64,000 nucleotides of DNA from an uncultured Porphyromonadaceae bacterium (GTDB lineage Bacteria > Bacteroidota > Bacteroidia > Bacteroidales > Muribaculaceae): positions 6,488-70,487 of the forward strand of contig URMA01000004.1 in assembly GCA_900548875.1 (NCBI GenBank), given 5' to 3'. Shown here one piece after another: positions 4,851-48,726 of the stretch (its first letter is position 1; each line of letters begins with the position of its first letter). A model generated the notes under the pieces. It searched no databases. It was given only the letters and a program-made list of their open reading frames with translations, and was not told the DNA's origin. The position numbers were made by a program, and so were the translations under genes.

Positions 4851-6053
4851 ATGAAACGTCTGAAAAAATTCTATTTCGACATATACAGAGCATTCAAGAA
4901 CGAATTCAAGTTCGTTATCAAGGACAAGGGTCTGCTGATCTTCCTGTTCCTTGTGCCGCTGCTCTATCCGATTGTTTATGCGCTCATCTATAATCCGGAA
5001 CTGACGCGCGACGTGCCGGTAGCGATTGTCGACGACAGCCGTTCGGTGAAAAGCCGCGAACTGGCACGCAAAATCGACGCCTCGGAATCGGCCATGGTAG
5101 CCGGCTATGCCGCCGACATGGAAGAGGCAAAACGCTGGATAGCCGAAAAACGGTGCTACGGAATTGTGCACATTGACCGCGATTTCGACCGCAACATCGT
5201 CCGAGGCGAACAGGGCACCGTGAGCCTCTACTGCGACATGTCGCTGCTCATCCGCTACAAGTCGCTGCTCGTAGCCCTGACCGAATCGACCATGGACCTT
5301 GGCTCGGATATCCGCATTGAAAAGATGTACAGTCTCGGAGCCGACGCGCCGAAAGTGCCGCCGACAGTATCCAGCACCTATTTTGCTTTGGGTAATCCCG
5401 AACAAGGCTTCGCCACCTTCCTGCTTCCGGCCATCCTTATCCTCATCGTGCAGCAGACCATCATTCTTTCCGTCTGCATGATGGGCGGCGCCATCTACGA
5501 ACGCCGTCGCCGCTACGGAGACGTGGACCCCTACGACACTCGGAATTCAGGAGCCGTCAGCCGTATGCTCGGAAAGGCAATGGCTTTCATCATCCTCTAT
5601 CTCGGCCAACTGGTTTATCTGCTCTATTTCGTACCGAAATTCTTCAGCTATCCGCAGTATGCCAACCTGTTTGAGGTGGTTCTCCTCTGCGTGCCCTATC
5701 TGTTTGCCGCCGTATTCTTCGGAATGACATTGCAGGTCATCGTACGCGAACGCGAGACGTCGTTTGTGCTGATAGTCGTAACTTCGGTCATCTTCCTGTT
5801 CCTTTCAGGCATTCCCTGGCCGCTCTACGACATGAGTCCCCTCTACCGCTTTGTCAGCGCATGCTGCCCGTCAACCTGGGCCATGCAGGCATTTGTACGC
5901 ATGAACGCCAACGGAGCTTCGCTCGGCGATGTCAACCACGAATACATGATGCTGTGGCTGAACGCCATCGGCTACTTCTTCATCGCCCTGTTTATCAACA
6001 AGGCTTCAGTGGGACACCACGTCCGCCAATATTCGCCGGAAAAAGCGCAATAG
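4851..6053 (+). CDS. ABC-2 type transporter permease (second paralog)
   Basis: It has the same architecture as the preceding gene and is the last gene of the operon. An intrinsic terminator follows. Confidence 0.75.
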   Translation: MKRLKKFYFDIYRAFKNEFKFVIKDKGLLIFLFLVPLLYPIVYALIYNPELTRDVPVAIVDDSRSVKSRELARKIDASESAMVAGYAADMEEAKRWIAEKRCYGIVHIDRDFDRNIVRGEQGTVSLYCDMSLLIRYKSLLVALTESTMDLGSDIRIEKMYSLGADAPKVPPTVSSTYFALGNPEQGFATFLLPAILILIVQQTIILSVCMMGGAIYERRRRYGDVDPYDTRNSGAVSRMLGKAMAFIILYLGQLVYLLYFVPKFFSYPQYANLFEVVLLCVPYLFAAVFFGMTLQVIVRERETSFVLIVVTSVIFLFLSGIPWPLYDMSPLYRFVSACCPSTWAMQAFVRMNANGASLGDVNHEYMMLWLNAIGYFFIALFINKASVGHHVRQYSPEKAQ

Positions 6054-12776: not shown

Positions 12777-13547
12777 ATGGCAACAGAGAATACTAAAGAA
12801 AAGAAAGAATTGACTGTCGAAGAACGCCTTAAAGCCGTTTACGACCTCCAGACACTGTTATCGGAAATCGACCGCATCAAGACGCTCCGCGGCGAACTTC
12901 CTCTCGAAGTGAAGGACTTGGAGGACGAAATCGAGGGACTGAAAACCCGTATCGCCAAATTTAAGGAAGAGGCTGAAGAACTGCGCAAGAGCGTAAACCA
13001 AAAGAAAGTCGAAATCCAACAGGCTCAAGCTGAAATTGCAAAATATTCGGAACAACAGAACAACGTACGCAACAATAAGGAATTCGACTTCCTCGCCAAG
13101 GAAATCGGCTACAAGCAACTGGAAATCGAACTTTGCGAAAAGCGTATCCGCGAATATAGCGAACAGGCTGACCGCAAACTTCAGGATGTTGCCGATGCAG
13201 AAAGCAACCTCGACGACAAGGAACACATCCTTGAAGAGAAAAAATCGGAACTCGACGAAATCATCGCCGAAACAAAGCAGGACGAAGAAAAGCTCCGCAT
13301 CCGTGCCAAGGAACTGGAAGCCAACATCGAGCCGCGTCTTCTCAAAGCCTTCAAGCGCATCCGTAGCAACGCCCGCAACGGTCTGGGCATCGTAACTATC
13401 CAACGTGGTGCCTGCGGCGGCTGCTTCAACCGTATCCCGGCACAGCGCCAGATGGAAATCAAGATGCACAAGAAAATCATCGTTTGCGAATACTGCGGAC
13501 GTATCATGATTGACCCGGAACTCGCCGGCGAACCAGAAACAGTATAA
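12777..13547 (+). CDS. Coiled-coil protein with C-terminal C4 zinc ribbon (COG1579-like), the usual partner of Nif3
   Basis: The long Glu/Lys-rich coiled coil ends with CGGCFNRIPAQ...CEYCGRI (CxxC...CxxC). The start lies 4 nt after the nif3 stop. Confidence 0.75.
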   Translation: MATENTKEKKELTVEERLKAVYDLQTLLSEIDRIKTLRGELPLEVKDLEDEIEGLKTRIAKFKEEAEELRKSVNQKKVEIQQAQAEIAKYSEQQNNVRNNKEFDFLAKEIGYKQLEIELCEKRIREYSEQADRKLQDVADAESNLDDKEHILEEKKSELDEIIAETKQDEEKLRIRAKELEANIEPRLLKAFKRIRSNARNGLGIVTIQRGACGGCFNRIPAQRQMEIKMHKKIIVCEYCGRIMIDPELAGEPETV

Positions 13548-13566
13548 CGGAATTTTCAATCAACCC

Positions 13567-13618
13567 CATAAAACGCGTCAGCCTCCCGAACTCGGTTCAG
13601 GAGGCTGACGTTTTTTAT
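13567..13618. terminator. Bidirectional intrinsic terminator
   Basis: A perfect long palindrome (aaaacgcgtcagcctcc ... ggaggctgacgtttttt) is flanked by A-rich and T-rich tracts. Confidence 0.7.
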
Positions 13619-13689
13619 GGCCGGTAGGTGCTCAAAAACACGACAAAACACCAGAATCTACAATAATATTGCGAAAAAAGTAAACATCT

Positions 13690-14892
13690 ATGATTAGTGT
13701 GAAAGTAAAATTCCGTCCTTCAACCGTCGTGGGTAAGGAAGGCGTTATCTATTATCAGATTATCCAAAACCGTATCGTTCGCCAACTGACAACAAGCTAC
13801 CGAATCTTCCCCTGTGAATGGGACGGACCGAACGCACGGCTCATTATCGGCAACACGGCCCGAAGCAACCAGCTGCTTTCGCTGAAAAGCCACATTGATT
13901 GGGACCTCCGGCGAATCAATATGATTATCAGCCGGTTGACACAAGACAATCAGCCCTTCTCCGCCAACGACATCATTGCAGCGTTTCAAACCCGGACTGA
14001 CGAACTGTCGTTAGCCAATTTTATGGAAAGCATTATAGCCCAACTGAAACAGATGGGCAAATTGCGAACAGCCGAAACCTATACGGCAACCCTCCGCAGC
14101 TTCATGCGGTTTCGCAACGATGCCGATGTGCTGTTGGACGAAATAACACCCGAACTGATTGCAATGTACGAAGCCTATCTGCAAAACAACGGAGTGGTAA
14201 GAAACACCAGCTCATTTTATTTGCGCATTTTCCGTGCCGTCTACAACCGTGCTGTCGGGAAAGACCTCGTCCGGCAACGGAATCCATTTAAGAATGTCTA
14301 TACGGGAGTGGACAAAACCGTGAAACGGGCCCTTCCCCTCTCTGCCATCCGTCGGATAAAAAATCTCGACTTGACCCGGCTTCCGAAATTGGAATTTGCC
14401 CGTGACATGTTCCTATTCTCATTCTACACGCGAGGGATGTCGTTCATCGACATGGCTTTTCTAAAAAAGACCGATCTCCAGAACGGATATTTGAAATATC
14501 GCCGCCACAAAACCAAACAACAGCTCCTTATCCGTTGGGAAAAATGCATGCAAGAAATTCTCTCATTGCACCCAACCGACAAAGCAAGCCCCTATCTTCT
14601 CCCCATAGTGAAACAGCCCTACGACAATGCCAGGAAATGTTATCGGAATACAATGGCTTCCATCAATGTTCAGCTAAAAAAGATAGCTGAACTTACCAAC
14701 GTAGCCTTTCCATTAAGCCTCTATTGTGCCCGCCATTCATGGGCAAGCATAGCACACAGCAAAAACATACCAATTTCCATTATCAGCGAAGGTATGGGAC
14801 ACGACTCTGAAGCAACCACATTAATCTATTTAGCATCAATCGACAATACCACCATCGACAACGCCAACGCTAAAATATTGAAAGATTTATAA
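13690..14892 (+). CDS. Site-specific tyrosine recombinase/integrase (Bacteroides-type, with N-terminal arm-binding domain)
   Basis: The C-terminal catalytic region carries RHSWAS...H..E and a LIYL tyrosine. Length (400 aa) and the N-terminal region are typical of Bacteroidales integrases and invertases. It sits at the boundary of a low-GC island. Confidence 0.85.
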   Translation: MISVKVKFRPSTVVGKEGVIYYQIIQNRIVRQLTTSYRIFPCEWDGPNARLIIGNTARSNQLLSLKSHIDWDLRRINMIISRLTQDNQPFSANDIIAAFQTRTDELSLANFMESIIAQLKQMGKLRTAETYTATLRSFMRFRNDADVLLDEITPELIAMYEAYLQNNGVVRNTSSFYLRIFRAVYNRAVGKDLVRQRNPFKNVYTGVDKTVKRALPLSAIRRIKNLDLTRLPKLEFARDMFLFSFYTRGMSFIDMAFLKKTDLQNGYLKYRRHKTKQQLLIRWEKCMQEILSLHPTDKASPYLLPIVKQPYDNARKCYRNTMASINVQLKKIAELTNVAFPLSLYCARHSWASIAHSKNIPISIISEGMGHDSEATTLIYLASIDNTTIDNANAKILKDL

Positions 14893-14917
14893 AGAGTTTT
14901 GTTTAGAAAATTACAGC

Positions 14918-14934
14918 ATCTCTATTTAAGAGAC
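14918..14934. repeat. Inverted repeat IR-L (atctctatttaagagac) of a putative invertible DNA switch
   Basis: The 15 bp core tctctatttaagaga is the exact reverse complement of the core at 15090-15104. Confidence 0.55.
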
Positions 14935-14947
14935 GTATTAATTATCA

Positions 14948-14955
14948 CAAAATTA
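14948..14955 (-). promoter_or_regulatory. Consensus -7 promoter element TAATTTTG on the minus strand inside the IR-bracketed segment. It currently faces the recombinase, i.e. the OFF orientation relative to the island operon.
   Basis: The match to TAnnTTTG is exact. It lies 13 nt from IR-L. After inversion it would lie ~14 nt from IR-R, reading into the 15136 gene. Confidence 0.45.
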
Positions 14956-15088
14956 GAAAATTCTTTCATATAAAAAAAATTCAAATCAATTTTAAGTACA
15001 CAATAAATGTAAATTTTTGTTTTGTTTAGAAAATTTCGATAATATCATTTATATTCATCTGATTTAATGTAGGGAACAAACACACTAT

Positions 15089-15105
15089 ATCTCTTAAATA
15101 GAGAC
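15089..15105. repeat. Inverted repeat IR-R (atctcttaaatagagac) of the putative invertible switch
   Basis: It is the reverse complement of the IR-L core. It lies 31 nt upstream of the ATG at 15136. Confidence 0.55.
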
Positions 15106-15135
15106 AATAAAGTCTAATACATAAAAATTACTACT

Positions 15136-16212
15136 ATGTACAATGAGAAAATTGAAGCACTCATTAATGCAGCCTTAACAGATGGAGTATTAACAGAAAA
15201 AGAAAAACAAGTACTTTTCAAAAATGCAGAAGCCCAGGGTATAGATCGTGATGAATTCGAAATGGTCTTAGAAGCACGATTACACGAAATGAAAAAAGCT
15301 GCACAAAAAGAGACAACATCTCCAAAATCTAACAAATTTGGAGATGTCAAAAAATGTCCAGCTTGCGGTGCGCTTATACAATCATTTCAAACTAAGTGCA
15401 GTGAATGTGGACATGAATTTAGTAATATTGGTGCTGTCACTTCTGCCCAGAGATTATTTGATTTACTTCAAGCTGCAGAAATGCGAAAATCAGAGCAAAT
15501 TTCAGCGCATAATCAAGAAAAAGCCAGACGTCTTGAAGAATTATCGAAACGTCACAATAGCGATAGCTCTTTCACTAAAATTTTTGGAGGAAATTCACGA
15601 AAAGAAACTCAAGATGAAGAACGTGAAGATTTGATACGAGAACTCAACAACAATTTAGCCATCATTGAAAAAAGTGCAGAACAAGAGAAGTTAGCTATTA
15701 TCAAAAACTTCCCAGTACCGAATACAGGTGAAGACTTAATTGAATTGCTTGCCATGACAACAAGTAATGCATATGATAACGATGGAGTCATAGGATTAGA
15801 AGAAGAGGCATGGCTACAAAAAACAGATCAAATATATCAAAAAGTTATTGCCTGTTCAGCTAATGACAAACCATTGTTAAAAAAAGCAACTCACATGGTT
15901 ACCTCTCTTATGCGACGTTTGCCTAATCAAGCTAACTATAAACATTTCACAAAAATCCCGACTGAAATGAGGACAATATTAGAGGAGGAGTTAAAAGTTG
16001 AACGAAAACACAAACAAGAACAGAACAAACAACTGATTTTATCAGTTCTGAAAGTCTATGGCACCATTGCTTGCATTGCCTTGTTATTATGTATTATTTT
16101 CTCATATATAGAAGAGCCCAGTGTAGCAGTATTATTTTTTATTATTGCAATTATCACAGTTTTCTTGGGATACAAAGCTTTTAAAAAGAAGAAAAACGAC
16201 AATCTTTTCTAA
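15136..16212 (+). CDS. Membrane protein with an N-terminal TerB-like domain, a C4 zinc ribbon, an acidic coiled-coil region and a C-terminal 2-TM anchor (YdjG-like?)
   Basis: The N-terminal ~60 aa read ..LTDGVLTEKEKQVLFKNAEAQGIDRDEFEMVL.. and fit the TerB/DjlA-N pattern. Next comes KCPACG...CSECGH. The C-terminal ~60 aa form two hydrophobic helices followed by KKKK. GC is ~33%. Confidence 0.6.
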   Translation: MYNEKIEALINAALTDGVLTEKEKQVLFKNAEAQGIDRDEFEMVLEARLHEMKKAAQKETTSPKSNKFGDVKKCPACGALIQSFQTKCSECGHEFSNIGAVTSAQRLFDLLQAAEMRKSEQISAHNQEKARRLEELSKRHNSDSSFTKIFGGNSRKETQDEEREDLIRELNNNLAIIEKSAEQEKLAIIKNFPVPNTGEDLIELLAMTTSNAYDNDGVIGLEEEAWLQKTDQIYQKVIACSANDKPLLKKATHMVTSLMRRLPNQANYKHFTKIPTEMRTILEEELKVERKHKQEQNKQLILSVLKVYGTIACIALLLCIIFSYIEEPSVAVLFFIIAIITVFLGYKAFKKKKNDNLF

Positions 16213-16241
16213 TATTAAATACTAATCAAGAACTAATTACT

Positions 16242-17579
16242 ATGGGATTATTCAGCAACAGAAGTAAGTCTGGTGGGATTCTTAATGTAATACGCTGCGA
16301 CGAACAAGAATATTTAGTATGGAAATGGCGTCCAGAAGGACAAGAAGTAAATTCAACGACTCGAGAGAATTCAATCCGATACGGAAGTTCATTAAGAGTA
16401 AAAGACGGAGAATTAGCCGTTTTTGTCTACAAGCAGAAAGATGGTTCTATGCAAGACTTCATTTTGGGACCTTATGATGGAACTATTAAAACTGCAAATT
16501 TCCCCGTATTGTCAAACATTGTCGGATTGGCATTTGGAGGAGATTCTCCTTTCCAAGCTGAAATATATTTTATAAATCTAGCAGGTAATGTACAAATCAA
16601 GTTTGGAATTCCATACTTTGACGTATACGATCCGCGTTTTCTTGATTTTGGAGTACCTATGTCTGTACGAGGTACTATAACCTTTAATATTACTGATTAT
16701 AAAGGTTTCATCAAACTTAACCGATTAATAAATTTCGAACTTGAAGATTTCAAGAAACAGATAAAGGATGCCGTAACAAAATACGTCAAGCAGGTAGTAA
16801 GTAATTGTCCGTCAGACAATGGGATACCAGTACTGCAAATAGAGCGAAAAATACTTGAAATCAATGACATTGTTGCCGCTTATCTTAGCAAACGACTACA
16901 AGCTGATTTTGGAGTAAACATGAAAGGCCTTGATATAGCCAATATAGAAATTGACAAAGAATCTGATGGGTATAGAGCATTAATAGCAGTTACTGCAGAG
17001 CAAACTGCGAAAACAGTGTTTGCACAAACTGATGTCAACATACAAAATTTGCAAGATACTCAGCGTATCAATGCGAAAAACTCAGAAGAGACATTACGCA
17101 TCCAAAGAGAAGAAGCACAACGTGCCCAACGTTTACAGACAGAAACAAATTTCATGGGCGCACATGCCATAGACCAACAAACAGATGTCTTGAGAACTGC
17201 TGCTTCCAACCTTGGAGAAATGGGGAACTTAGGAAATGGAGGAATGAATCCAGCAGGCATGATGACCGGTATGATGATGGGAACTGCCATGGGAGGACAA
17301 ATGGCCAATATGATGAATCAGATGGGACATCAAGCCCAACAACAGTCCATGACACCACCTCCTCCGCCAACCTCAAATTATATGTTATATGTAAATGGAG
17401 CACAAAGTGGACCGTTTAATCTTGCCCAATTACAACAATTGGCGCAAACAGGTCAATTTACCCCACAAACATACGTTTGGAAACAAGGAATGGCAAATTG
17501 GTTACCAGCTGAACAAATTGCAGAATTGTCAGGAATATTTGTTCAACAAACCCCACCACCTCCTCCTGTTATGCCATAG
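16242..17579 (+). CDS. SPFH/Band-7 (Band_7_1-like) domain protein with a Gly/Met/Gln-rich linker, proline runs and a C-terminal GYF_2 (DUF4339) domain
   Basis: The N-terminal ~280 aa resemble the bacterial Band_7_1 SPFH family (YdjI-like). The C-terminus reads YMLYVNGAQSGPFNLAQLQQLAQTGQFTPQTYVWKQGMANWLPAEQIAEL, which matches the DUF4339 pattern. It is flanked by PPPPP runs. Confidence 0.6.
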   Translation: MGLFSNRSKSGGILNVIRCDEQEYLVWKWRPEGQEVNSTTRENSIRYGSSLRVKDGELAVFVYKQKDGSMQDFILGPYDGTIKTANFPVLSNIVGLAFGGDSPFQAEIYFINLAGNVQIKFGIPYFDVYDPRFLDFGVPMSVRGTITFNITDYKGFIKLNRLINFELEDFKKQIKDAVTKYVKQVVSNCPSDNGIPVLQIERKILEINDIVAAYLSKRLQADFGVNMKGLDIANIEIDKESDGYRALIAVTAEQTAKTVFAQTDVNIQNLQDTQRINAKNSEETLRIQREEAQRAQRLQTETNFMGAHAIDQQTDVLRTAASNLGEMGNLGNGGMNPAGMMTGMMMGTAMGGQMANMMNQMGHQAQQQSMTPPPPPTSNYMLYVNGAQSGPFNLAQLQQLAQTGQFTPQTYVWKQGMANWLPAEQIAELSGIFVQQTPPPPPVMP

Positions 17580-17628
17580 ATATACATAATTAATAAGTAA
17601 ATATATAAACAATTCATATAATTTTAAT

Positions 17629-17973
17629 ATGGACGATAACAGCTTTTCTTCCATCGATCGACTTATGGAGTTTGGTATGAGCATGGGCATTGCACAACAA
17701 ATGATAAACACCATGAATCAATCTTTAAATTCGATGTATGTTCCCAACGCAGGTCAAAAAATAAGTCCAACAAAAAATGGATACTATATCATCATTGACA
17801 ATCGTCAATTAGGTCCACTTAATGAGGATGAAATTTCCATTTTAGCAAAAAATGGCCGCTTGTCAGAAAATGATTTTGTGTGGAAGGAAGGAATGACTGG
17901 TTGGCGATTGGCAAAAGAAATTCCAGAAATATACAAATATATAATTTTATACTACAAACCATATGAAGATTGA
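17629..17973 (+). CDS. Small protein with a C-terminal GYF_2 (DUF4339) domain
   Basis: The motif ..GYYIIIDNRQLGPLNEDEISILAKNGRLSENDFVWKEGMTGWRLAKEIPEI.. matches the tail of the preceding protein. Confidence 0.55.
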   Translation: MDDNSFSSIDRLMEFGMSMGIAQQMINTMNQSLNSMYVPNAGQKISPTKNGYYIIIDNRQLGPLNEDEISILAKNGRLSENDFVWKEGMTGWRLAKEIPEIYKYIILYYKPYED

Positions 17974-18313
17974 CTTTATAAACACGATTATAAGTTGCTG
18001 TTTAACTGCTCTTTTGACATATATATGCTATTCAATATGTAAGTATACTGAATTCCAAACACTGCTTATCATCGGCTCTTCTATAATTTTTATCCTATTG
18101 TCTATACCATCAATAGCTATAAAAATTCCCAATTATTCCAGGACTTCTATTTTACTTAAAATCACATCTGTAATATTTTGGAGTATAGCTATCATTACAA
18201 ACATTATTTTTGCACTTAGCAATTTTAGCAATTCTTCATATATTATTACAAACGGAATAATACTAATATTGTTTATTTTAACATATTCATCTATATATCG
18301 AACTAAACAATAA
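17963..18313 (+). CDS. Small integral membrane protein (3 predicted TM helices), last gene of the island operon
   Basis: It overlaps the preceding gene by 11 nt. The protein is strongly hydrophobic and has low GC. No family was recognised. Confidence 0.45.
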   Translation: MKIDFINTIISCCLTALLTYICYSICKYTEFQTLLIIGSSIIFILLSIPSIAIKIPNYSRTSILLKITSVIFWSIAIITNIIFALSNFSNSSYIITNGIILILFILTYSSIYRTKQ

Positions 18314-18317
18314 CACT

Positions 18318-18372
18318 AAAAACGTCAGAACCCCAAGTGTTTGAAAAAGGCATTTGGGATTTTGACGTTTTA
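18318..18372. terminator. Bidirectional intrinsic terminator at the right island boundary
   Basis: The sequence aaaacgtca ... tgacgtttt forms a palindrome with an inner ccccaagtg/catttggg stem. It serves the island operon (+) and the convergent dehydrogenase gene (-). Confidence 0.6.
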
Positions 18373-18415
18373 TATTATCAGTTGGCGGAAGTGGACGGAG
18401 CCGCTCCCGTGGGGA

Positions 18416-19612
18416 CTATACTTCCAAGTCGCCGTTGATGATTTCGTGCCAGGGCAGACCTTGGATGTTGAGCTGTTCCATGAACGGATCCGGATCGAAC
18501 TCTTCCACATTCCATACGCCCGGACGCTTCCAAAGGCCCTTTAGGAACATCATTGCACCAATCATGGCCGGAACACCGGTCGTGTAGCTTACGGCCTGCA
18601 TGCCGGTTTCTTCGTAGGCGGCATGGTGAGAGCAGTTGTTGTAGACGTAGTAGGTCATCGGTTTTCCGTCCTTACCCTTACCGCTGATGCGGCAGCCGAT
18701 GGATGTTTCGCCGGTATAGTTGGCTCCCAACTCCTTCGGATTAGGCAACACGGCCTTCAGGAACTGGATAGGCACGATTTCCATGCCATTGTAGACAATC
18801 GGCTTGATGCTTGCCATGCCGATGTCCTGAATCACGCGCAGGTGTGTGAGGTATTCCTGTCCGAAAGTCATCCAGAAACGTGCGCGTTTCAGTGTCGGGT
18901 AGTTCTTCACCAGGCTTTCCAGCTCTTCGTGATACATCAGATAGGATTCGCGCGGACCGATGTTCGGATACGTAAGCGGCTTGTGAACCGACAGCGGGTC
19001 AGTTTCCTTCCATTCGCCGTTTTCATAGTATTTTCCGCGTTGTGTAATCTCACGGATATTGATTTCCGGATTGAAGTTGGTGGCGAAAGCCTTGCCGTGG
19101 TTACCCGCATTGCAGTCCACAATGTCGAGATGCTCCATTTCCGAGAAATAATGTTTGGCGGCATAAGCGGTATATACGCCCGAAACGCCCGGGTCGAAAC
19201 CGCAGCCGAGAATTGCCGTCAAACCGGCCTTTTCGAAGCGGTCCTTATACGCCCACTGCCAGCTATACTGATATTTGGCTTCATCAAGCGGCTCATAATT
19301 GGCCGTGTCGAGATAGTTTACACCACATTCCAGACAAGCGTCCATAATTGTCAAATCCTGATAAGGAAGCGCCACATTGATGACGATATCAGGTTGGTGT
19401 TTCTTGAACAGCTCAACCAGTTGCGGCACGCTGTCGGCATCAACACAGTCGGTCACGACATTGTCCTTGCCGATGGCTTTTGCAATATCGTCGCATTTGA
19501 CCTTTGTGCGCGAAGCGAGTACAATCTCGTTGAACACATCGGGATTCTGGGCACATTTGTGCGCCACTACGGTACCTACACCGCCAGCCCCAATAATTAA
19601 GACTTTTGCCAT
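18416..19612 (-). CDS. Saccharopine dehydrogenase family protein, probably carboxynorspermidine/carboxyspermidine dehydrogenase
   Basis: The N-terminus reads MAKVLIIGAGGVGTVVAHKCAQNPDVF..IVLASRT..KC, a Rossmann motif very similar to known carboxynorspermidine synthases. Length is 398 aa. Confidence 0.7.
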   Translation of the reverse strand: MAKVLIIGAGGVGTVVAHKCAQNPDVFNEIVLASRTKVKCDDIAKAIGKDNVVTDCVDADSVPQLVELFKKHQPDIVINVALPYQDLTIMDACLECGVNYLDTANYEPLDEAKYQYSWQWAYKDRFEKAGLTAILGCGFDPGVSGVYTAYAAKHYFSEMEHLDIVDCNAGNHGKAFATNFNPEINIREITQRGKYYENGEWKETDPLSVHKPLTYPNIGPRESYLMYHEELESLVKNYPTLKRARFWMTFGQEYLTHLRVIQDIGMASIKPIVYNGMEIVPIQFLKAVLPNPKELGANYTGETSIGCRISGKGKDGKPMTYYVYNNCSHHAAYEETGMQAVSYTTGVPAMIGAMMFLKGLWKRPGVWNVEEFDPDPFMEQLNIQGLPWHEIINGDLEV

Positions 19613-23789: not shown

Positions 23790-25630
23790 ATAAAAATACA
23801 ATAGGAGCAACACTTCGTATTGCCCCTATCATTATCAAGTGCTAAGCACTGACATAACTTCCCCCTGTTTCCCAACAGAGAAAAGGGTTGATATAATAGT
23901 GATTGGTTTTGTTACCCTAAATTAATCCTTTTTATAATATTGAACAAGCATACACCTGTTTTTTTACGAAAAAATACAGAAAGCATAGACTAAATCAAGA
24001 AAAAAGTTAGAAAAACCACACCGTCCGAAGAACACGACAAAGCCGCCGGGCAATTTCCACCAAGATTCCATATCCACGCTGACAATGACGTCACAAAGCA
24101 GGCAGACGTTCCGGCCCCCAATATTTCTAACATACGGCAAAAATCATTAGCAATAAATATTCAAGAATAACAATATAAAATACAGTCACGTTTTCCACAA
24201 TCAAGCAAGCGAAAAAGAAAAAAGCCGATCGACTCTTCGACCGGATTTAATTCTTTGTTGCTTACAAGAAGCAACTCTTTTTACAAACCTAACATAAAAC
24301 CATTTTTACACTGCATTACGTTTCACAACGGAATGAGTATTTAATACTCCATATTTATTTTCGTAGTGTTAACCATTATTGAAAGTGTTATCTTAACTTT
24401 CACATCACAAAGGTACAACGAAAAACAAGCGTGTGTATGCTCATATAAATAAAAATATAAACTAATATCAGGTAAATATAATATTAATATATTGTAATAC
24501 AATTATTTATTATTATAGTAGAGCCAATCAAATATAAATAATTTTATAAGTATAATAGGGATATAAAACAAGAGGAAATAAGGGAATCTGACGCAGAGGA
24601 GTTAAGTGTTCTTATCATTCATTACCTGTAAGGATCTGCACCGGCCCGAAGAACTATTTTCATCCACATGAAAGGGCATATCCGGCTGACAACGGACAGA
24701 AACATTCACCTGCCCTACTCCCGACAGTTCTGCCACCACACCCAAGCAGCAATGGCCAGAAAACAAAAAAGCTCATCATAAGATGAACTTCAATTGCAGT
24801 TGCCAAAGCAACTTTTTACAAACCTAACATAAAACCATTTTTTCAAATTCATATGCCGTTTCACAACGGCATATAAGAACTATGATACTCCATATAGTGT
24901 TTAACCATTATCAAATCTTTCGATTTGACATTACAAAGATATACCCCATTTTCTCAAATTATACCACCCCATAAATAGCGATATAAGCATTTAAGGCAGA
25001 GATATAAGTACATTCATTTGTCATTCAGATATTTGCGCACAGATAACATAGGGAACAAATATAAATCATTTCACAGCATAACATAATATACCAAGGTAAA
25101 TTGCAATCGATTTCACCCGCCCGGCACCTCGAACTTCCGTGACATCAGCGGACTCCTGGGAGGTAAATTGTAACCGATTTTGCCCGCCAGGCATTATCCA
25201 ACGAGCCCTCCCCCAAGAACGTAGCAGACAGACAAAATAAAAAAGCTCACCAACAAGGATGAGCTTTTGTTTCTTTGTTGCTTACAAGAAGCAACTTTTT
25301 TACAAACCTAACATAAAACCATTAAAGAAATTACTTTCCGTTTCACAACGTCCGAGTAATTAAAAATACTCCATATATCGTAGTGTTTAACCATTATCAG
25401 ATTTTGTCAAGAACAGCTCTTTGTTTTTGACACTACAAAGTTAAGACGATTTCCAACGGATTAAACCACTACATCAATATAAATATAAATAGTTTACGGT
25501 AATATATAAACATATTACTACTGATATGCAATATATTACACTATAATCAGGACAAGATAAATATAAATAAAAATATCAAATCATACAGCTATAAACAAAA
25601 CTGCTCAAACATCATTAAAGGCCATTATTT
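23790..25630. repeat. ORF-free AT-rich region containing three tandem paralogous ~0.5 kb units. Each unit ends in a double hairpin terminator and a conserved ~130 bp module.
   Basis: The conserved module is ..ttgttgcttacaagaagcaac(t)cttttt acaaacctaacataaaaccat ... cgtttcacaacgg ... atactccatat ... gtgtttaaccattat.. It recurs at ~24.25, ~24.79 and ~25.27 kb. Each copy is preceded by a second hairpin (aagctca..tgagctt type) and by a ~100 bp GC-richer block. Confidence 0.6.
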
Positions 25631-27198
25631 CAATCAATCACCCCGATTTTCATGATCTGTTTCTCAAAATTTTCGCGGTCAATGGCCTTGTTTCGCATCT
25701 TATTTCGATAGGCGTAAACCGTGTTTACCGAATATTTGAGGAATTCGGCAATCTTCGTATTGTCATCAAGCCCCATACGATGCAGCGCGTAAATACGCAG
25801 TTCAGCCGTCAGCATGCCCAATTCCGGTACGACAATACGTTCCTCCGGTCTTAACAGCGCATTGACATCATCGACAAAAGTAGTGTAAATTTTCAGAAAG
25901 GCATTGTCAAATTCCCGATAAAAGCCACGATGCTGTTCATCGGAAAAGCGTGCAGACTTCGTCATTTTCAGCAAATCCTCCACCTGCCCGGATACAAGTT
26001 TCCGATTGACAAGTTTCGTAAACGAATCCAGACGTTTCATATAGACGGAGCTCAATTCAAGGAATTGTCCCATATATTCGTCTTTCGCCACGTTGGCATC
26101 ATGAAGCTTCTTTCGGTCCGTAGACAGTTTTCGCATCTGCTTGACAAGGAAAAACACGGTAATCAGCAAACCAATCAGCAACAGACTGACAATCACTATA
26201 TAGGCTACCAACAAATTTTCATGCGACTTGACCTCTGCCCGATGAGCGCCTTCGATAACCGGCAACATGCGGGAAGCATTGTAGACACGCACCTGCGCAT
26301 TACAGAAGGCAGCATCCTCAATTGAGGAAAAAATGTAGCGATAGGCACGCTCAATGTCGCCCTTGTCGTAAACCAACATCGATAATTCGTACATCGACTG
26401 ATTTTCCTTGACAGAACACTGCAAATCGGAAATAGCGGAAAGCGCATAAAACTTCATACTCTCGTCCGTATTGCCTTCAGCATTGAGAGTGGAGGCCAAC
26501 AGACCTGCGGCAATGGCATATTCATTGCTGGTTTCCGGCAATTCGGACAATAAATCACCCAAAACGAGTTTAGCCGACACATTCTTTTTATCCCATAAAG
26601 CCTGCTCAGCCTCATACAGACGGCGCGTAATCGACCCTTCCGGCAAGGAAGCAATCCACTCCTTACGCAATTGATTGGTCGTATTATAATAATGACTGTA
26701 ATAAATACTTCCACGGTTAATGGAATTCAAGGCGAAGGAATAAATGCGATAGCCGCATTCATAATAGGCGGAATGCAAAGAATCGGGCAACTGGCTGAAA
26801 TCAATGGAATTATATTCCGAAGAGACCTCCGAATAAAAGCCCACAATCATTTCCGGACGAAGCCGTTTCAATTTAAGATGAATCGCCTTGCCGGGATTGC
26901 CGAGTGTATCGGCCACGCCGATAGCCTGCGAATAATAATAGACAGCGGAATCGGCCTTGAACAGCGTGAATTCATCGCCCAACTTTTCAAGACAGACCAA
27001 TTGCGCAGACTTGTCAGAACCCGCACGGTTCAAAATTGTCTTCAAACTGTCGATACGGGCATATTTCGCCTTGTCAAAAATGTTTTTTTGGGCAATCATC
27101 TTGTCCAGACGCTGTATTTCAGGCAAATTCGCCGAAGCACTGAACACACCGAGGACAGCAGATAACAGGGTTAGAATAATGGTTAAACGTTTAGGCAT
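25630..27198 (-). CDS. Membrane-anchored TPR-like sensor/regulator with C-terminal HTH (Bacteroidetes DUF6377-like family)
   Basis: The order is signal peptide, ~300 aa TPR-like periplasmic domain, one TM helix (VAYIVIVSLLLIGLLITVFFLV), a cytoplasmic coiled coil, then a C-terminal HTH (..KYSVNTVYAYRNKMRNKA..). Confidence 0.6.
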   Translation of the reverse strand: MPKRLTIILTLLSAVLGVFSASANLPEIQRLDKMIAQKNIFDKAKYARIDSLKTILNRAGSDKSAQLVCLEKLGDEFTLFKADSAVYYYSQAIGVADTLGNPGKAIHLKLKRLRPEMIVGFYSEVSSEYNSIDFSQLPDSLHSAYYECGYRIYSFALNSINRGSIYYSHYYNTTNQLRKEWIASLPEGSITRRLYEAEQALWDKKNVSAKLVLGDLLSELPETSNEYAIAAGLLASTLNAEGNTDESMKFYALSAISDLQCSVKENQSMYELSMLVYDKGDIERAYRYIFSSIEDAAFCNAQVRVYNASRMLPVIEGAHRAEVKSHENLLVAYIVIVSLLLIGLLITVFFLVKQMRKLSTDRKKLHDANVAKDEYMGQFLELSSVYMKRLDSFTKLVNRKLVSGQVEDLLKMTKSARFSDEQHRGFYREFDNAFLKIYTTFVDDVNALLRPEERIVVPELGMLTAELRIYALHRMGLDDNTKIAEFLKYSVNTVYAYRNKMRNKAIDRENFEKQIMKIGVID

Positions 27199-37041: not shown

Positions 37042-37116
37042 TCGGGGTGTAGCGCAGTCCGGTTAGCGCACCTGCTTTGGGAGCAGGGGGTCCCAAGTTC
37101 GAATCTTGGTACCCCG
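37042..37116 (+). tRNA. tRNA-Pro (anticodon TGG)
   Basis: The cloverleaf folds by hand. The acceptor stem is cggggtg/taccccg and the D-arm is gcgc/gcgc. The anticodon stem cctgc/gcagg carries the loop ttTGGga. The T-arm is ccaag-ttcgaat-cttgg. The discriminator is A and CCA is not encoded. Confidence 0.85.
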
Positions 37117-37239
37117 ACAATGAACGACTTAACAGCAATGTTGAGTCGTTTTTTGTTTATCTCCCCCTTTCAACGGATCAACGTTCTCGCACCAATTATG
37201 GGTCAACGTAAAAATCTGAGGGGAAATTTAAGGAAATAG

Positions 37240-37960
37240 TATCTTTGCCAGAAAGAACAAAAAAACGGATAAGAGCATCCTCAAATTTATGTCTTTATGT
37301 TCTTCTGTCGGAGAAATTTATTTTTGACAAAAGAACACAAGAACAGAAATCATATTTTTATAGACACCTGACACACAACACCTTCAACATTATAAAAATT
37401 TTGTCCTTTTGTTCTTCTGTCCCCAAAAACTCTCCCACCAGCACAGAAGAACACTCTAACGCATTTTATTTTTGACAGAAGAACAGAAAGACATATTTTG
37501 AAAGCGCTGCCAAGTGGCGTCCTCCACTTAGAAAGAGGAGGTGGGCGGAGCCCGGAGGAGTATGAACGCCAACATTGGGTTGGAGATTAGCGTTTGTAAA
37601 CTGTAAATCCTTGGAAAATGTTCATGCTCCCCAGTCTGTGTTCATTCCCCTCAGTCGCAAGCGACGGCTCCCCTATCTTAGGTGAGCACAGGCTAACGCG
37701 TTGATTATCTTATATTTGATTTTTCGACAGAAGAACACAAGAACAGAAATCATATTTTTATAAGAGCTTGACACATAGCACTTTCAGCATCATAAAAATT
37801 TTGTCCTTTTGTTCTTCTGTCAAAAAAACTCCCCCATCAACGACCTGAAAACTGCGTTTTCGTTTGCCTCTCCGCTCTGCTTTTCGTATCTTTGGATAAG
37901 ATTGGAGGCGGCTCGGGATAAAAAATATCTGAAACAAGTTTCAATATTTTATTCTCCGCT
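37240..37960. repeat. Cluster of MITE-like modules (GACAGAAGAACA family) immediately 3' of tRNA-Pro. It includes a duplicated ~110 bp unit (37.32-37.43 and 37.72-37.83 kb) and a ~200 bp GC-richer module (37.49-37.70 kb).
   Basis: Repeated blocks are tttttgacaaaagaacacaagaacagaaatcatatttttata...ttttgtccttttgttcttctgtc. The module gaaagcgctgccaagtggcgtcctcc...ttaggtgagcacaggctaacgcg has an inverted partial copy at 42.38-42.47 kb. Confidence 0.6.
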
Positions 37961-39816: not shown

Positions 39817-40353
39817 CTAAAACTCATAGCCGATGTGCAGGGCATATCCTCCTGACCAGTATGCGCCAAAATTCATATCCAAACCACAAGACAAATTCAA
39901 TGCGCTTTTTTCAGTTAATGCAATACGCAATCCCAGCATCATCATTTCATAGAAAGAAACATCCTCAATATTAACAAAAGAACTGCCTATCCGGTATACA
40001 AAAAATGGAGTGACGCGCCTGTCTAAAAAATTAACCCGGGCTTCCGCAAATACCGGCAAATGCCAATAATTATATTTAGGGCTGACTCCCAACGCCAGTC
40101 CGCCTCCCAAAAAGAAATAATCGTTAAACTGATAGCCATGCGTCGTCGACACACTTACCCAGTCACCGTCAACCCAATCGTCTGTATCGCCATCTACATC
40201 GAAAGCATACCCCATGTTCACAAAACAGTTATATCCCCGCAACGTGCGGCGTTGCTCTTTCTTGCTCAAACCAGCATTGTCCGCTGGCTCGTATGCCACT
40301 GCCGGTAGCGAAGCCAATACCGCTAACAGCAATAATAAAATTCTTGTTTTCAT
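39817..40353 (-). CDS. Small outer-membrane beta-barrel protein (OmpA-like / porin family)
   Basis: A signal peptide (MKTRILLLLLAVLASLPAVA) is followed by alternating hydrophobic beta strands and a C-terminal ..YEF. Length is 178 aa. Confidence 0.6.
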   Translation of the reverse strand: MKTRILLLLLAVLASLPAVAYEPADNAGLSKKEQRRTLRGYNCFVNMGYAFDVDGDTDDWVDGDWVSVSTTHGYQFNDYFFLGGGLALGVSPKYNYWHLPVFAEARVNFLDRRVTPFFVYRIGSSFVNIEDVSFYEMMMLGLRIALTEKSALNLSCGLDMNFGAYWSGGYALHIGYEF

Positions 40354-40572
40354 AGTTATATCGCTTTTTGGTTATATTCAAAGGATACAAAAGGCTGTTC
40401 GGAATAAAAAGCCGAAACAAGTTTCAATATTTTATTTCTCCCTTTTCACTGTTTCTTTACAAATATAAGAATTCACACCCTAAAAGACCACAAATCGGCA
40501 TAAATCATCTTGCCATTAAAACACTAATAACCAATTGATTAAAAAAATATTTTTACACTTCTACAAATCAAA

Positions 40573-42237
40573 CTATTTTTCAGGGGCAGAAGATTCGGCA
40601 TTATCTACAAAGTGAGCGATAAATTCTTTTAAAGGCTCTGAGATTCCCAACTTTTTTGAAATGCGCAGTTTTTTCGTGCTGACATAGTTCGGATTCGTAT
40701 ATCCCATACAAATGGCTATTTCAATATAAGAATAACCGCAACACATCAAGCCGACAATGTGCAGTTCGTCGTCCGACAGATCGGGGCACCGCTCCTTGAG
40801 GCGTGACAAAATATTGCCGTATTTTGAATTGACAAAATACTGAAAATCCTTCCAAAAATCATCCGGAAGTCGGGTTTTCTTTATACGCTCCTTGAATTTA
40901 TTGAAAAAAATGCCCGGCTGCTGATTGTAGCGATGGGAAAGATCTATAAAATATCGGATATTGTCAATCACTTGCGACAAAATGCCTTGCAACATCATGG
41001 CATCCTGCGACTTATCGTTAATAATATTTCGCGATGTGGAGACAACCGTTTGCAGCTGTTCGATAAGCAACTGCTGTTCGCGGAGCTTGGCTTTGCGCTT
41101 CAGCCAATAAATCCATCCGAACAATAGAATGACAGCAATAACGGCAACGATGAAATAGGCGAATGTCTTTTCTCTTTTAAGGCTGACGGTCTGCAACAAA
41201 AGTTGCTGACGGTCGAAACGCTTCTCTGTTTCAAACAGTTCCACCTGTCGGGCGTTTTCAATGATTGTATCTGCCAACTTGCTTGAACGGTCATTATAGT
41301 AGAATGCACTTTTGTAATCGTTTTGTGCCAACGCAATTTCCGTTTCCGCCATCAGTCTCTGCAATCGATCGCGATCCGAGAGATTTTCCGTCGGCAGCTT
41401 GCGGAAAAAGTATAAGGCAGAATCCAGATTCCCGATTTTGGCATAGGCACAGCATAAGTCGTAGTCAACATTTGCAACCAACGGTATTTTTTCCTGAAAC
41501 CGGCTGGCCAGACGCCCTATCGCTATCGCCTCCCGATCCTTATTCTCCGACTCATAAGCACGGGCCTTTGTCGCCAATGCCATATATAGTTTCACACTGT
41601 CGCCAACTGTTCTCGCCAAATCAGCCATTATATCCATATAGTAGTAGGCACTGTCCATATTATAGACACGTAAACTGGAAGAAAGACCCGAAAGACAAGA
41701 AAGCTGATATTTCGTATTGCCGGACTTTTTATAATTGGACAACGCCTTCCGCAATTTAGATATATGTTCTTGATTTTGAATATAGGAATAAGTATATACC
41801 TCAGCCATACGGAGATTGACATAACCGATAAAATCATAGTTGGATGTATCAGCTATCGACTCTGCCTGCTTGTAGAAACGCAACGCCTCCTCTTTTTCTC
41901 CCATTTCGTAGAGAACGGCTCCCTTAAACAGAAGGGAACGTGCATAGTTAGCCCTGTTGTCCGTTGATTTATAGTAGTCCACGGCTATATTGATTAGCGA
42001 ATCATTTTTTGCACGGACATTACATTTATACATCGCCTGCGACATCAGCAAACTGTAGAGCGCGCAGTTCTCCCCGCCGGAAAGGCTATCGGGATTGACG
42101 GAACGCAGTATGACATAAGCGTTGTCAGGACGGGTTTCTACCAAACTGTCGGCCAACACCAGACGGCTGTCGACCTTTCGCGAACATCCGACAACACACA
42201 ACGCAAGCAGCAAAGCAAAACAAAGAAGTTTTTTCAT
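40573..42237 (-). CDS. Lipoprotein-anchored TPR-domain regulator with internal TM helix and C-terminal LuxR-type HTH
   Basis: A lipobox (LALCVVGCS) is followed by TPR-like repeats, a TM helix (FAYFIVAVIAVILLFGWIYWL), a coiled coil, then a LuxR/GerE HTH (..LSDDELHIVGLMCCGYSYIEIAICMGYTNPNYVSTKKLRISKKLG..). It is a paralog-like architecture of the 25630-27198 gene. Confidence 0.65.
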   Translation of the reverse strand: MKKLLCFALLLALCVVGCSRKVDSRLVLADSLVETRPDNAYVILRSVNPDSLSGGENCALYSLLMSQAMYKCNVRAKNDSLINIAVDYYKSTDNRANYARSLLFKGAVLYEMGEKEEALRFYKQAESIADTSNYDFIGYVNLRMAEVYTYSYIQNQEHISKLRKALSNYKKSGNTKYQLSCLSGLSSSLRVYNMDSAYYYMDIMADLARTVGDSVKLYMALATKARAYESENKDREAIAIGRLASRFQEKIPLVANVDYDLCCAYAKIGNLDSALYFFRKLPTENLSDRDRLQRLMAETEIALAQNDYKSAFYYNDRSSKLADTIIENARQVELFETEKRFDRQQLLLQTVSLKREKTFAYFIVAVIAVILLFGWIYWLKRKAKLREQQLLIEQLQTVVSTSRNIINDKSQDAMMLQGILSQVIDNIRYFIDLSHRYNQQPGIFFNKFKERIKKTRLPDDFWKDFQYFVNSKYGNILSRLKERCPDLSDDELHIVGLMCCGYSYIEIAICMGYTNPNYVSTKKLRISKKLGISEPLKEFIAHFVDNAESSAPEK

Positions 42238-46735: not shown

Positions 46736-46946
46736 TACGAATAAGCATAAAAATTTAGCTTATTCGTACACTTGATTATAATCTATTGTTTTCCAATTAA
46801 TTAAACCTGTAAAATAATTTCAAAACACGGTCAAAAGCACTATCTCTCCCGCTTATTTCACACTAAAAACGACCATTTCAGCCCTAAAATGACAAAATAA
46901 GCATATTTAAATATGCTTATCTTTACAAATATTGTTATTTTAAATA
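46736..46946. repeat. Direct repeat DR-1 (~210 bp) flanking the AAA/DUF4143 ATPase gene
   Basis: It is ~90% identical to 48516-48726. It begins with the palindrome gtacgaataagc-ataaaaattta-gcttattcgtac and ends with the perfect 24 bp palindrome ataagcatatttaaatatgcttat. Confidence 0.7.
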
Positions 46947-47056: not shown

Positions 47057-48517
47057 ATGAAGCAACCCAACGAACTGATTAAGGAACAGGTAATAAAACG
47101 AATGTCGTTCGATAATCCCTGGTGGATTTCCGTCTCCATTTCCAACGACTATAAAGCCATGCAACCACGAGCCTATCTTCCCGATTTCTACGACATGGTT
47201 GCCAACATGTCCATCCGTCGTGCAACAATACTGATGGGGCCGCGGCGTGTGGGAAAAACCGTCATGATTTTTCACACTATTGACCGCCTTATCAAAAGCG
47301 GAATCAATCCACAGAAAATCATCTATATATCCATCGATACACCCATATACAACAATATCTCGCTGGAAGAACTATTTCATTATGCACGCCAAGCATTGAA
47401 ACAGGAGGATTGCTTAGAAGGTTTTTACGTGTTTTTTGATGAAATCCAATATTTAAAAGATTGGGAAATTCACTTAAAATCACTGGTTGACAGCTATCGC
47501 TCCGTGAAATTTGTGGCTTCAGGTTCAGCGGCTGCTGCGCTGAAAATGAAAAGCAACGAAAGCGGAGCCGGACGTTTTTCCGACTTCACCCTCCCCCCTC
47601 TTACTTTTTTCGAATATCTCAAACTCATAGGACAAGGTTCCATCATTGTCAAAAACAACAGTAAAACAATACCGGTTGACACTATCGACATCACGCGCCT
47701 CAACCAGCTTTTCATCGATTACATAAACTACGGTGGCTATCCGGAAGTAGTGGTTTCGGACGAAATACGTGCCAACCCCGGACAATACATCCGCCACGAC
47801 ATTATTGACAAAGTGCTGTTGCGCGACCTGCCCAGCCTTTATGGAATCAAGGACATCCAAGAATTGAACAAACTGTTTGTCCACATAGCTTTTCTTTCCG
47901 GGAATGAATTTTCGTATGAAAGTTTGTCACAAGAAGCCGGAATCAAGAAGGAGACACTCAAAAAGTATCTCGAATATCTCGAAGCCGCCTTCCTCATCAA
48001 AGTTGTCAATCGTATTGACCAAAATGCCAAACGCATGCAACGGGTTACGTCCTTCAAAATATACCTGACCAACCCGTCGCTCCGCTGTGCCTTGTTTACG
48101 CCTATTTCCGACAACGACGAATGCATTGGGAACATGGTCGAAACTGCCATCTTTTCGCAATGGGTACAAGGCGGGAAAAGCGATTTCTATTATGCCAATT
48201 GGGCCAAAGGAAGAGAAAAAGGTGAAGTTGACCTCGTATGGACCGATCCTGCCACCCAAAAGGCTTTTTCGTTAGCGGAAATCAAATGGACTGACCGATT
48301 TGCGGAAACTCCAAGCGAACTGAAATCGCTCTATCATTTTTTAGGAAGCAATCCCGATGTACGAAAAATAATTGTAACATCAAAAACCATCAGCAGAGTG
48401 TATAACAGTTCTAAAGGACAAATTCTGTTTGTTCCTGCAGCACTTTACGCTTATTGGATTTCAGCTTATCTATATAACTCACAGAAAAAGATACATGAAA
48501 AGGATAATGCAATGTAA
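47057..48517 (+). CDS. AAA+ ATPase with C-terminal DUF4143 domain (COG1373-type ATP-binding protein)
   Basis: Walker A is GPRRVGKT and Walker B is ..VFFDEIQY... The C-terminal region matches the DUF4143 pattern. The start was chosen at MKQPNELI. The ORF track begins at 47003. Confidence 0.75.
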   Translation: MKQPNELIKEQVIKRMSFDNPWWISVSISNDYKAMQPRAYLPDFYDMVANMSIRRATILMGPRRVGKTVMIFHTIDRLIKSGINPQKIIYISIDTPIYNNISLEELFHYARQALKQEDCLEGFYVFFDEIQYLKDWEIHLKSLVDSYRSVKFVASGSAAAALKMKSNESGAGRFSDFTLPPLTFFEYLKLIGQGSIIVKNNSKTIPVDTIDITRLNQLFIDYINYGGYPEVVVSDEIRANPGQYIRHDIIDKVLLRDLPSLYGIKDIQELNKLFVHIAFLSGNEFSYESLSQEAGIKKETLKKYLEYLEAAFLIKVVNRIDQNAKRMQRVTSFKIYLTNPSLRCALFTPISDNDECIGNMVETAIFSQWVQGGKSDFYYANWAKGREKGEVDLVWTDPATQKAFSLAEIKWTDRFAETPSELKSLYHFLGSNPDVRKIIVTSKTISRVYNSSKGQILFVPAALYAYWISAYLYNSQKKIHEKDNAM

Positions 48518-48726
48518 AAATAAGCATAAAAATTTCGCTTATTCGTGCATTTGATTATAATATACTATTTTTCAATTAGTTACATATGCAAAATAATTTC
48601 AAAACACGGTCAAAAGCACTATCTCTCCCGCTTATTTTACACTAAAAACGACCATTTCAGCACTAAAATGATAGAATAAGCCTATTTAAACATGCTTATT
48701 TTTACAAATATTGTTATTTTAAACAT
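48516..48726. repeat. Direct repeat DR-2 (~210 bp), copy of DR-1, immediately after the ATPase stop
   Basis: See DR-1. The terminal palindrome is slightly degraded here (ataagcctatttaaacatgcttat). Confidence 0.7.

Follow-up and report, generated by a model that had tools for sequence, protein, structure and literature searches.

A probable promoter inversion switch, in the OFF orientation, between a tyrosine recombinase gene and an exchangeable cargo operon in a Muribaculaceae bacterium

We analyzed a 64,000-nucleotide stretch of contig URMA01000004.1 (GenBank assembly GCA_900548875.1), from an uncultured Porphyromonadaceae bacterium placed in the Muribaculaceae by GTDB; this whole stretch is referred to here as the window. 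About 15 kb into it, a tyrosine recombinase gene is followed by an intergenic region of only 21% G+C that carries a putative invertible promoter, and then by a small operon of genes that we refer to as cargo (Table 1). The intergenic region contains the 15-mer TCTCTATTTAAGAGA and, further on, its exact reverse complement, which together make a perfect inverted repeat. Each arm is a 5-bp palindrome around an asymmetric 5-nt centre (left TCTCT-ATTTA-AGAGA, right TCTCT-TAAAT-AGAGA). The left arm starts 26 nt past the recombinase stop (14892), and the right arm ends 31 nt before the ATG of the first cargo gene at 15136. A preliminary description of this DNA, made from its letters, had already pointed out the repeat and both gaps, and our repeat scan recovers all three as described; the 153 bp that it gave between the arms is in fact 156 nt. 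Its estimate that such a repeat would arise by chance at ~1e-3 agrees with dinucleotide-preserving shuffles of the intergenic region, where a perfect inverted repeat of at least 15 nt, with arms required to be at least 40 nt apart, appeared in 3 of 5000 cases (~6e-4). There are no further copies of the 15-mer in the 64 kb of the window, not even at up to 2 mismatches, and the sequences that flank the 186-nt unit, ACAGCA and CAATAA, reveal no target duplication.

Inside the segment, the match to the Bacteroidetes promoter consensus is exact for the -7 element only. Apart from the box TAATTTTG, no exact TAnnTTTG occurs, on either strand, from the left arm to the ATG. The box is on the minus strand and faces the recombinase, as the preliminary description had it, at a distance from the left arm of 14 nt rather than the 13 nt given there. 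We refer to this orientation, away from the cargo, as OFF. Were the segment inverted, the box is predicted to lie at 15068-15075 on the plus strand, 14 nt from the right arm, which is the spacing that had been anticipated for the ON state. The hairpin formed by the left arm itself, with the T-run that follows it on the minus strand (14917-14935), was flagged as terminator-like by a consensus scan. Such a hairpin might halt the OFF-state transcript before it enters the recombinase gene in antisense.

The recombinase carries an arm-binding, a SAM-like and a catalytic domain, and its residues R248, K274, R348, H371 and Y380 are invariant among 33 family members. The domains and the invariant catalytic residues bear out the original view that a tyrosine recombinase adjoins the switch. 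The family is large, with at least 7,986 protein clusters at E<=1e-60, and its members are labelled only ‘site-specific integrase’ or ‘XerD’ in public databases. A sequence search of the PDB with the recombinase gave no match at E<=0.01, and NCBIfam returned only Xer-type matches far below threshold. A scan with the recombinase of one genome per species found more than 578 relatives; the 80 best (54-66% identity over all 400 residues) were retained. Of those with enough downstream DNA, 61 loci share the cassette described below and form the comparative set used here; this count includes the window and L013, an unrelated metagenome contig with a different chromosomal context. The L013 recombinase is 56% identical to that of the window and is followed by the same 15-nt repeat pair around a different 169-nt segment, with a 1652-aa Type ISP restriction-modification enzyme as cargo.

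A TCTCT-N5-AGAGA pair is found in the 61 loci, beginning 23-129 nt (mostly 23-60) past the recombinase stop, with ~140-240 nt (mostly 140-175) between its arms. The central pentamer takes 25 different forms across loci and is nevertheless equal in both arms in all but one of the 56 pairs that could be framed. The core sites of tyrosine recombinases, such as lox, FRT and dif-type sites, consist of arms around a crossover region, so arms that are conserved around a centre that is free but matched are the pattern expected for such a region. An outward-reading TAnnTTTG occurs 13-15 nt from one repeat in 58 of the 61 loci, pointing toward the recombinase in 49 of them (OFF, as in the window) and toward the cargo, at the mirror-image position, in 9 (ON). 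The segments of loci L052 and L075 are 94% identical when one is inverted and 65% identical when compared directly; for L050 and eight close relatives, the corresponding values are 73-80% and 51-57%. Flipped homologous segments between fixed flanks are also seen in the pairs L041/L045, L092/L093 and L053/L054. These comparisons show that segments of the cassette family invert.

Aligned in the direction of the promoter, the segments share a consistent order of elements: distal repeat, TGAnnATCA, the strongly conserved TTTGCTAAACA, a TTTG element, the -7 box, a ~14-nt spacer and the proximal repeat. The window has the family features, namely full-length recombinase homology, the 26-nt gap, the 156-nt segment, the matched centre ATTTA/TAAAT and the box at 14 nt. 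Some loci depart from the common form around the core sites. At L013 (5427-5651), inversion is confined to the central 5 nt, and the two core sites are flanked by sequences in direct repeat (AAATATCCAAATCTCT...AGAGATGGTT at each), an arrangement for which a simple inverted-repeat model does not account. The extension ATTTGGAT is also present, on one side, in L086-L088.

A second pair of motifs accompanies the cassette. In the window these form a 17-nt perfect direct repeat, GTTTTGTTTAGAAAATT, with one copy outside the switch and the other inside it. Across the family, 47 of 61 loci have an outer motif, TGTTTAGCAAA, that begins 19 nt (17-24 in most loci) ahead of the left repeat and never changes strand. 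The inner motif lies ~90 nt from the left repeat and on the outer copy's strand in OFF loci (36), and ~60 nt from it and on the opposite strand in ON loci (9). No counterpart of these motifs occurs to the right of the switch. Given that the recombinase has an arm-binding N-terminal domain, we infer that the paired TGTTTAGCAAA motifs are putative accessory arm-type sites to which this domain may bind. The asymmetry between a fixed outer and a mobile inner copy could make the two states structurally unequal and bias the switch to OFF, which would fit the 49:9 excess.

Two assemblies bear on the behavior of the locus itself. Logan contig L109 (run ERR11504625; recombinase 99% identical) stops at the final base of the left repeat, where the OFF continuation is C and the predicted ON continuation is T. 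Logan contig L116 (run ERR13995521), which carries a sibling allele, stops one base beyond the repeat, and in that allele the OFF (TATTC) and ON (TGAAA) continuations have exactly one T in common. The Logan assembly presumably used k = 31; at that value, a 15-nt repeat by itself would not be expected to break the graph, whereas two read continuations would do so at precisely these bases. The ends of both contigs at the predicted ON/OFF branch base are thus indirect evidence for mixed orientation in the reads. A further contig, L107 (1-140; ERZ28614407 scaffold_39101), matches the window from 15056 onward, in the right repeat and cargo. The remaining segment and the recombinase are replaced by unrelated sequence that includes a hairpin-like GTGGT...ACCAC, and L107 may derive from the switch by truncation or rearrangement.

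Recombinase, switch and cargo together make up a strain-variable insertion of 4.75 kb (~13619-18375, 37% G+C). An imperfect 13-nt direct repeat, TGACGTTTT[T/A]TAT, which lies within the terminator of a gene for a Zn_ribbon_9 protein, bounds it on both sides. A search for att-like repeats with 10-nt seeds found nothing, and the 13-nt repeat emerged only through comparison with strains in which the site is empty (L118, L123 and L124). These have a single copy of the repeat at ~5330-5342, and their homology to the window ends at 13618 and resumes at 18363. They are conspecific, with flanks that are 98.6-98.9% identical to those of the window.

Among strains that encode an identical left neighbor, the Zn_ribbon_9 protein, the site is empty or is occupied by the SPFH cargo seen in the window, by an MmeI/Eco57I-like methyltransferase pair (L112-L117), by thioredoxin-like cargo (L111, L120-L122) or, once, by SusC/SusD (L119). 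Three cargo alleles have a common left junction and recombinases that are 88-98% identical to that of the window. The MmeI-type allele has 15-nt core sites identical to those of the window, and the core of the thioredoxin-like allele is a variant. From one allele to the next, neither promoter segment nor cargo is related; between the window and L112, homology stops ~37 nt to the right of the left repeat. The cargo may have been exchanged by site-specific recombination acting at the core site or by homologous recombination within the flanks, and we favor neither route over the other. The stretch between the aspartyl-tRNA synthetase and NIF3 genes is also strain-variable (~1100-2900 in L120, L123 and L124; ~410-1070 in L119 and L122). 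It holds open reading frames (ORFs) of 156-185 aa beside a DUF6443 protein, or an Abi_2-like gene; the window has neither.

So, is the locus a switch? We consider it highly probable that it is a promoter inversion switch in the OFF state, as the preliminary description had proposed. The presence of the cassette in 61 loci, the occurrence of both orientations (49 OFF and 9 ON) and the flipped segments of relatives all favor this. The reading is strongly supported by comparison with relatives, and it is from them that we infer the flipping of the window's own copy. The adjacent recombinase is presumably the responsible enzyme, and expression would be expected to follow orientation. In this model, the 400-aa recombinase would act on the two inverted core sites, with site polarity set by the asymmetric 5-nt centre between the TCTCT and AGAGA arms. 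A crossover between the two sites would turn the 156-nt segment around, together with the only consensus Bacteroidetes promoter box. In the OFF state the promoter would fire toward the 3' end of the recombinase gene, leaving the cargo operon (15136-18313) without a consensus promoter. In the ON state, the inverted box would drive transcription through the right site into the operon, with a leader of ~55 nt.

Several observations weigh against such a switch, or against its simplest form. The locus is OFF in 13 of 13 independent sources, compiled from exact-protein look-ups and collection scans, and there is no ON-state assembly among the contigs with exact protein matches. The predicted inverted junction, in which ACAGCATCTCTATTTAAGAGA is joined to TATAGTGTGTTTG (left flank and repeat followed by the segment end in reverse complement), gave no exact match in the metagenome_contigs and genome_contigs collections, a search of low power given that the metagenome collection has one contig of the locus. 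The contig-end signal comes from two contigs only, and a contig could also end there at a gap in coverage or because another allele co-occurs. The -33 region of the window is off-consensus at the canonical spacing, with a TTTG 26 nt upstream of the -7 box, and the conserved TTTG column of the family segment alignment reads TATG in the window. Three 1-mismatch boxes on the plus strand (15010-15024) face the cargo, and there may therefore be some cargo expression even when the switch is ‘OFF’. Both accessory motifs of the window are 1 mismatch off the 9-nt family core. Finally, direct repeats flank the island, so the recombinase might also, or instead, serve integration.

This last point leads to the most substantial alternative, in which the recombinase is mainly the integrase of the 4.75-kb island, the segment is a relic that no longer flips, and the operon is permanently silent or expressed from another start. 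The imperfect 13-nt repeat that bounds the island and the conspecific strains with an empty site are what such a role would leave behind, and the arm-binding, SAM-like and catalytic architecture of the protein is as found in integrases, with IntDOT as one example. The uniformly OFF state of all 13 assemblies would also fit. However, the locus retains perfect arms and an intact recombinase with conserved catalytic residues. Both orientations occur among family members, two contigs break at the predicted branch base, and the direct repeats of the island bear no resemblance to the TCTCT-N5-AGAGA core. We consider this explanation unlikely, and note that integrase and invertase roles are not mutually exclusive.

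Pairing of the arms in RNA, as a leader stem, a small RNA or an attenuator, or a role of each arm as a small terminator hairpin, would account for covariation of the central pentamers between arms across loci and for the terminator-like signal of the left arm. A terminator role of the left arm in the OFF state could coexist with a switch. RNA structure does not explain a segment that occurs in both orientations between fixed flanks, or the mirror-image positions of the promoter box and the inner accessory motif. The arms are exact Watson-Crick complements with no G-U-type substitutions, and an Rfam scan of 14700-15400 matched no family; a purely RNA-based role thus seems very improbable. We give even less credence to a miniature transposable element with these repeats as its terminal inverted repeats, or to chance, as their origin. 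The 186-nt unit is AT-rich, as such elements or accidents might be, but the shuffles rarely reproduce the repeat, the unit is single copy in the window and lacks a target duplication, and in the family it always lies shortly downstream of a homologous recombinase gene. The flipped segments between fixed flanks are a pattern for which neither RNA structure nor a transposon nor chance can account.

Table 1. Features of the recombinase, promoter segment and cargo region, with positions in the window
Feature	Position	Strand	Basis
Left island-bounding repeat, TGACGTTTTTTAT	13606-13618	.	Empty-site comparison
Tyrosine recombinase, 400 aa, putative invertase	13690-14892	+	Pfam Arm-DNA-bind_5, Phage_int_SAM_5, Phage_integrase
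Outer (fixed) putative accessory motif	14896-14912; core TGTTTAGAA 14900-14908	+	Family consensus TGTTTAGCAAA
Left core site (arm)	14919-14933	.	Repeat scan; family consensus TCTCT-N5-AGAGA; contig L109 end at 14933
Predicted invertible promoter segment, 156 nt, oriented away from cargo	14934-15089	.	Alignment to family cassette
Bacteroidetes -7 box TAATTTTG, pointing at recombinase (OFF)	14955->14948	-	Sole exact TAnnTTTG from left arm to ATG
Inner (mobile) putative accessory motif	15019-15035; core 15023-15031	+	Window version of TTTGCTAAACA
Right core site (arm)	15090-15104	.	Repeat scan
Cargo gene 1, 358 aa: TerB/DjlA-like N-terminus, zinc ribbon, hydrophobic C-terminal segment	15136-16212	+	Weak Pfam/NCBIfam matches
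Cargo gene 2, 445 aa: SPFH (Band_7_1) and C-terminal GYF_2	16242-17579	+	Pfam E 1.5e-23, 1.1e-19
Cargo gene 3, 114 aa: GYF_2	17629-17973	+	Pfam E 2e-15
Possible cargo gene 4, 116 aa, strongly hydrophobic	17963-18313	+	ORF only
Right island-bounding repeat, TGACGTTTTATAT	18363-18375	.	Empty-site comparison

The cargo of the window has a G+C content of 35%, compared with ~50% in the flanks. The last ORF shares 11 nt with the end of the GYF_2 gene, has no family match and is absent from the public gene calls on identical contigs, so that its standing as a fourth cargo gene is uncertain. PADLOC, run on the cargo and recombinase, found no significant match to defence-system models. Across the family, the first cargo gene falls into ~28 unrelated groups, mostly defence-type genes. 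The commonest are Type ISP restriction enzymes (10 loci), PLD-nuclease/SNF2 helicases (9) and MmeI-like methyltransferases (5). Type III Mod, Type I HsdM, an FtsK-like ATPase, an Hsp70 with a zinc ribbon, a radical SAM protein and a JAB protein occur at single loci, and the other cargo includes FHA, DUF3575, MBOAT and unknown proteins.

By mechanism, the locus can be likened to the fim switch of E. coli, in which the tyrosine recombinases FimB and FimE invert a short promoter segment and accessory sites give directional bias. The fim element is 314 bp long with 9-bp repeats, and its two recombinases lack an arm-binding N-terminal domain. The likeness is meant as one of mechanism. The characterization of the locus as a ‘classic’ Bacteroides switch holds as to kind; the class of its repeats is unlike the published motifs that we compared.

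Among the closest known systems is the BT4014-BT4013 promoter inversion of Bacteroides thetaiotaomicron, which was confirmed by polymerase chain reaction and amplicon sequencing and is induced after phage exposure (Porter et al. 2020, bioRxiv 10.1101/521070). In both cases the recombinase lies directly upstream and a near-consensus promoter faces away from the cargo in the assembled genome; the BT4014 promoter is bracketed by inverted repeats of ~18 bp (bioRxiv 10.1101/521070). The ‘BT4014 ON’ gene primer of that study (Table S6) matches the first cargo gene of locus L066 at 19 of 20 bases. L066 has the repeat ATCTCTTGATAAGAGA and a recombinase that is 55% identical to that of the window, and through it the BT4014 switch can probably be assigned to the TCTCT-N5-AGAGA family. 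The BT4014 cargo consists of restriction endonucleases, whereas that of the window is an SPFH/GYF/zinc-ribbon membrane operon.

The GTTAC-N7-GTAAC switches (BT1927 S-layer, Tsr25/26, and the capsular polysaccharide loci of B. thetaiotaomicron and B. xylanisolvens; PMC4611039, PMC12118408) also combine an adjacent tyrosine recombinase with an internal Bacteroidetes promoter, and exert ON/OFF control over downstream genes. Their repeats, like those of the window, are internally palindromic with a variable centre. However, the elements are 256-301 bp long compared with 156 nt here, their cargo is surface layers and capsules, and GTTAC-N7-GTAAC is absent from 13501-18500 and from the whole window. 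Tsr19/BF2766 (IVp-I/IVp-II) of B. fragilis and P. vulgatus likewise lies just upstream of an invertible promoter, which is predominantly OFF, with ~1% ON in culture, and is linked to a membrane-stress response (PMC4747536, PMC12940148). Unlike the window, which has no second site, Tsr19 also acts on a distant second promoter, and its motif TACTTNNNANGTAANNGAA is absent here. The Mpi-type serine-invertase motif of B. fragilis capsule promoters, ARACGTWCGT, is absent too, and the window recombinase is of the tyrosine type. Neither of the published motifs GTTCGTTTAA and GCTACTYRGNRAGTAGC is found at the locus.

The switches of antibiotic-resistance integrative and conjugative elements (PMC8748976) share with the window the order of invertase, invertible promoter (-33 TTTG, -7 TANNTTTGY) and exchangeable cargo. 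There, OFF is favored in most samples and cargo is replaced downstream of an existing switch. Their invertases group with glycan-locus invertases on conjugative elements, whereas the unit in the window is a 4.75-kb chromosomal islet without conjugation genes. Predominance of OFF is normal for such switches (PMC8748976, PMC4747536). TCTCT-N5-AGAGA is set apart from the printed repeat classes compared, and may yet be among other published motifs. A full-text literature search with the core sequence gave irrelevant matches only.

Other repeats occur elsewhere in the window. A 31-nt inverted repeat (87% match) at 37469-37499 and 37796-37826 spans 296 nt between its arms, and its GACAGAAGAACA motif recurs as a third, direct copy at ~37722. 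The inverted repeat lies downstream of a tRNA-Pro gene (37043-37118) and upstream of a 571-aa ORF, with no adjacent recombinase; plus-strand TAnnTTTG boxes occur at 37467, overlapping the left arm, and at 37711, within the segment. A second perfect 15-nt inverted repeat (TGTAAAAATAAGCAT; 48513-48527 and 48692-48706, arms 164 nt apart) is in a gene-free gap between ORFs on opposite strands, with no internal promoter box and no recombinase nearby. The core AATAAGCAT recurs in a palindrome at 46894-46923. Stretches of low G+C content are found at 24000-26000 and 40000-41000 (35-40%, compared with ~50% for the window), and there is no large ORF at 23.8-25.6 kb.

Taken singly, the locus is one more Bacteroidales inverton, of a kind that has been catalogued in thousands. 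Worth following are the exchange of cargo at one site, the defence-rich cargo of the family and the paired accessory motifs. Near-identical recombinases (88-98%) carry three unrelated cargo sets at one site and the family cargo is mostly anti-phage, which allows the speculation, tentative at this point, that recombinase and invertible promoter constitute a portable phase-variable platform for exchangeable cargo. By the same tentative reasoning, the SPFH-GYF/zinc-ribbon operon would be an unrecognized anti-phage or envelope-protection module, and the paired TGTTTAGCAAA motifs would be a new directionality device that holds costly genes OFF. The stereotyped cassette, with its TCTCT-N5-AGAGA sites, its box at 14 nt and its outer and inner motifs, is recognizable from sequence alone, so that orientation can be read directly from any assembly. 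As a marker it could lead to new defence or envelope genes under phase-variable control, of which the SPFH/GYF operon would be an example, and it could help in the study of how gut bacteria hold costly defences OFF in most cells.

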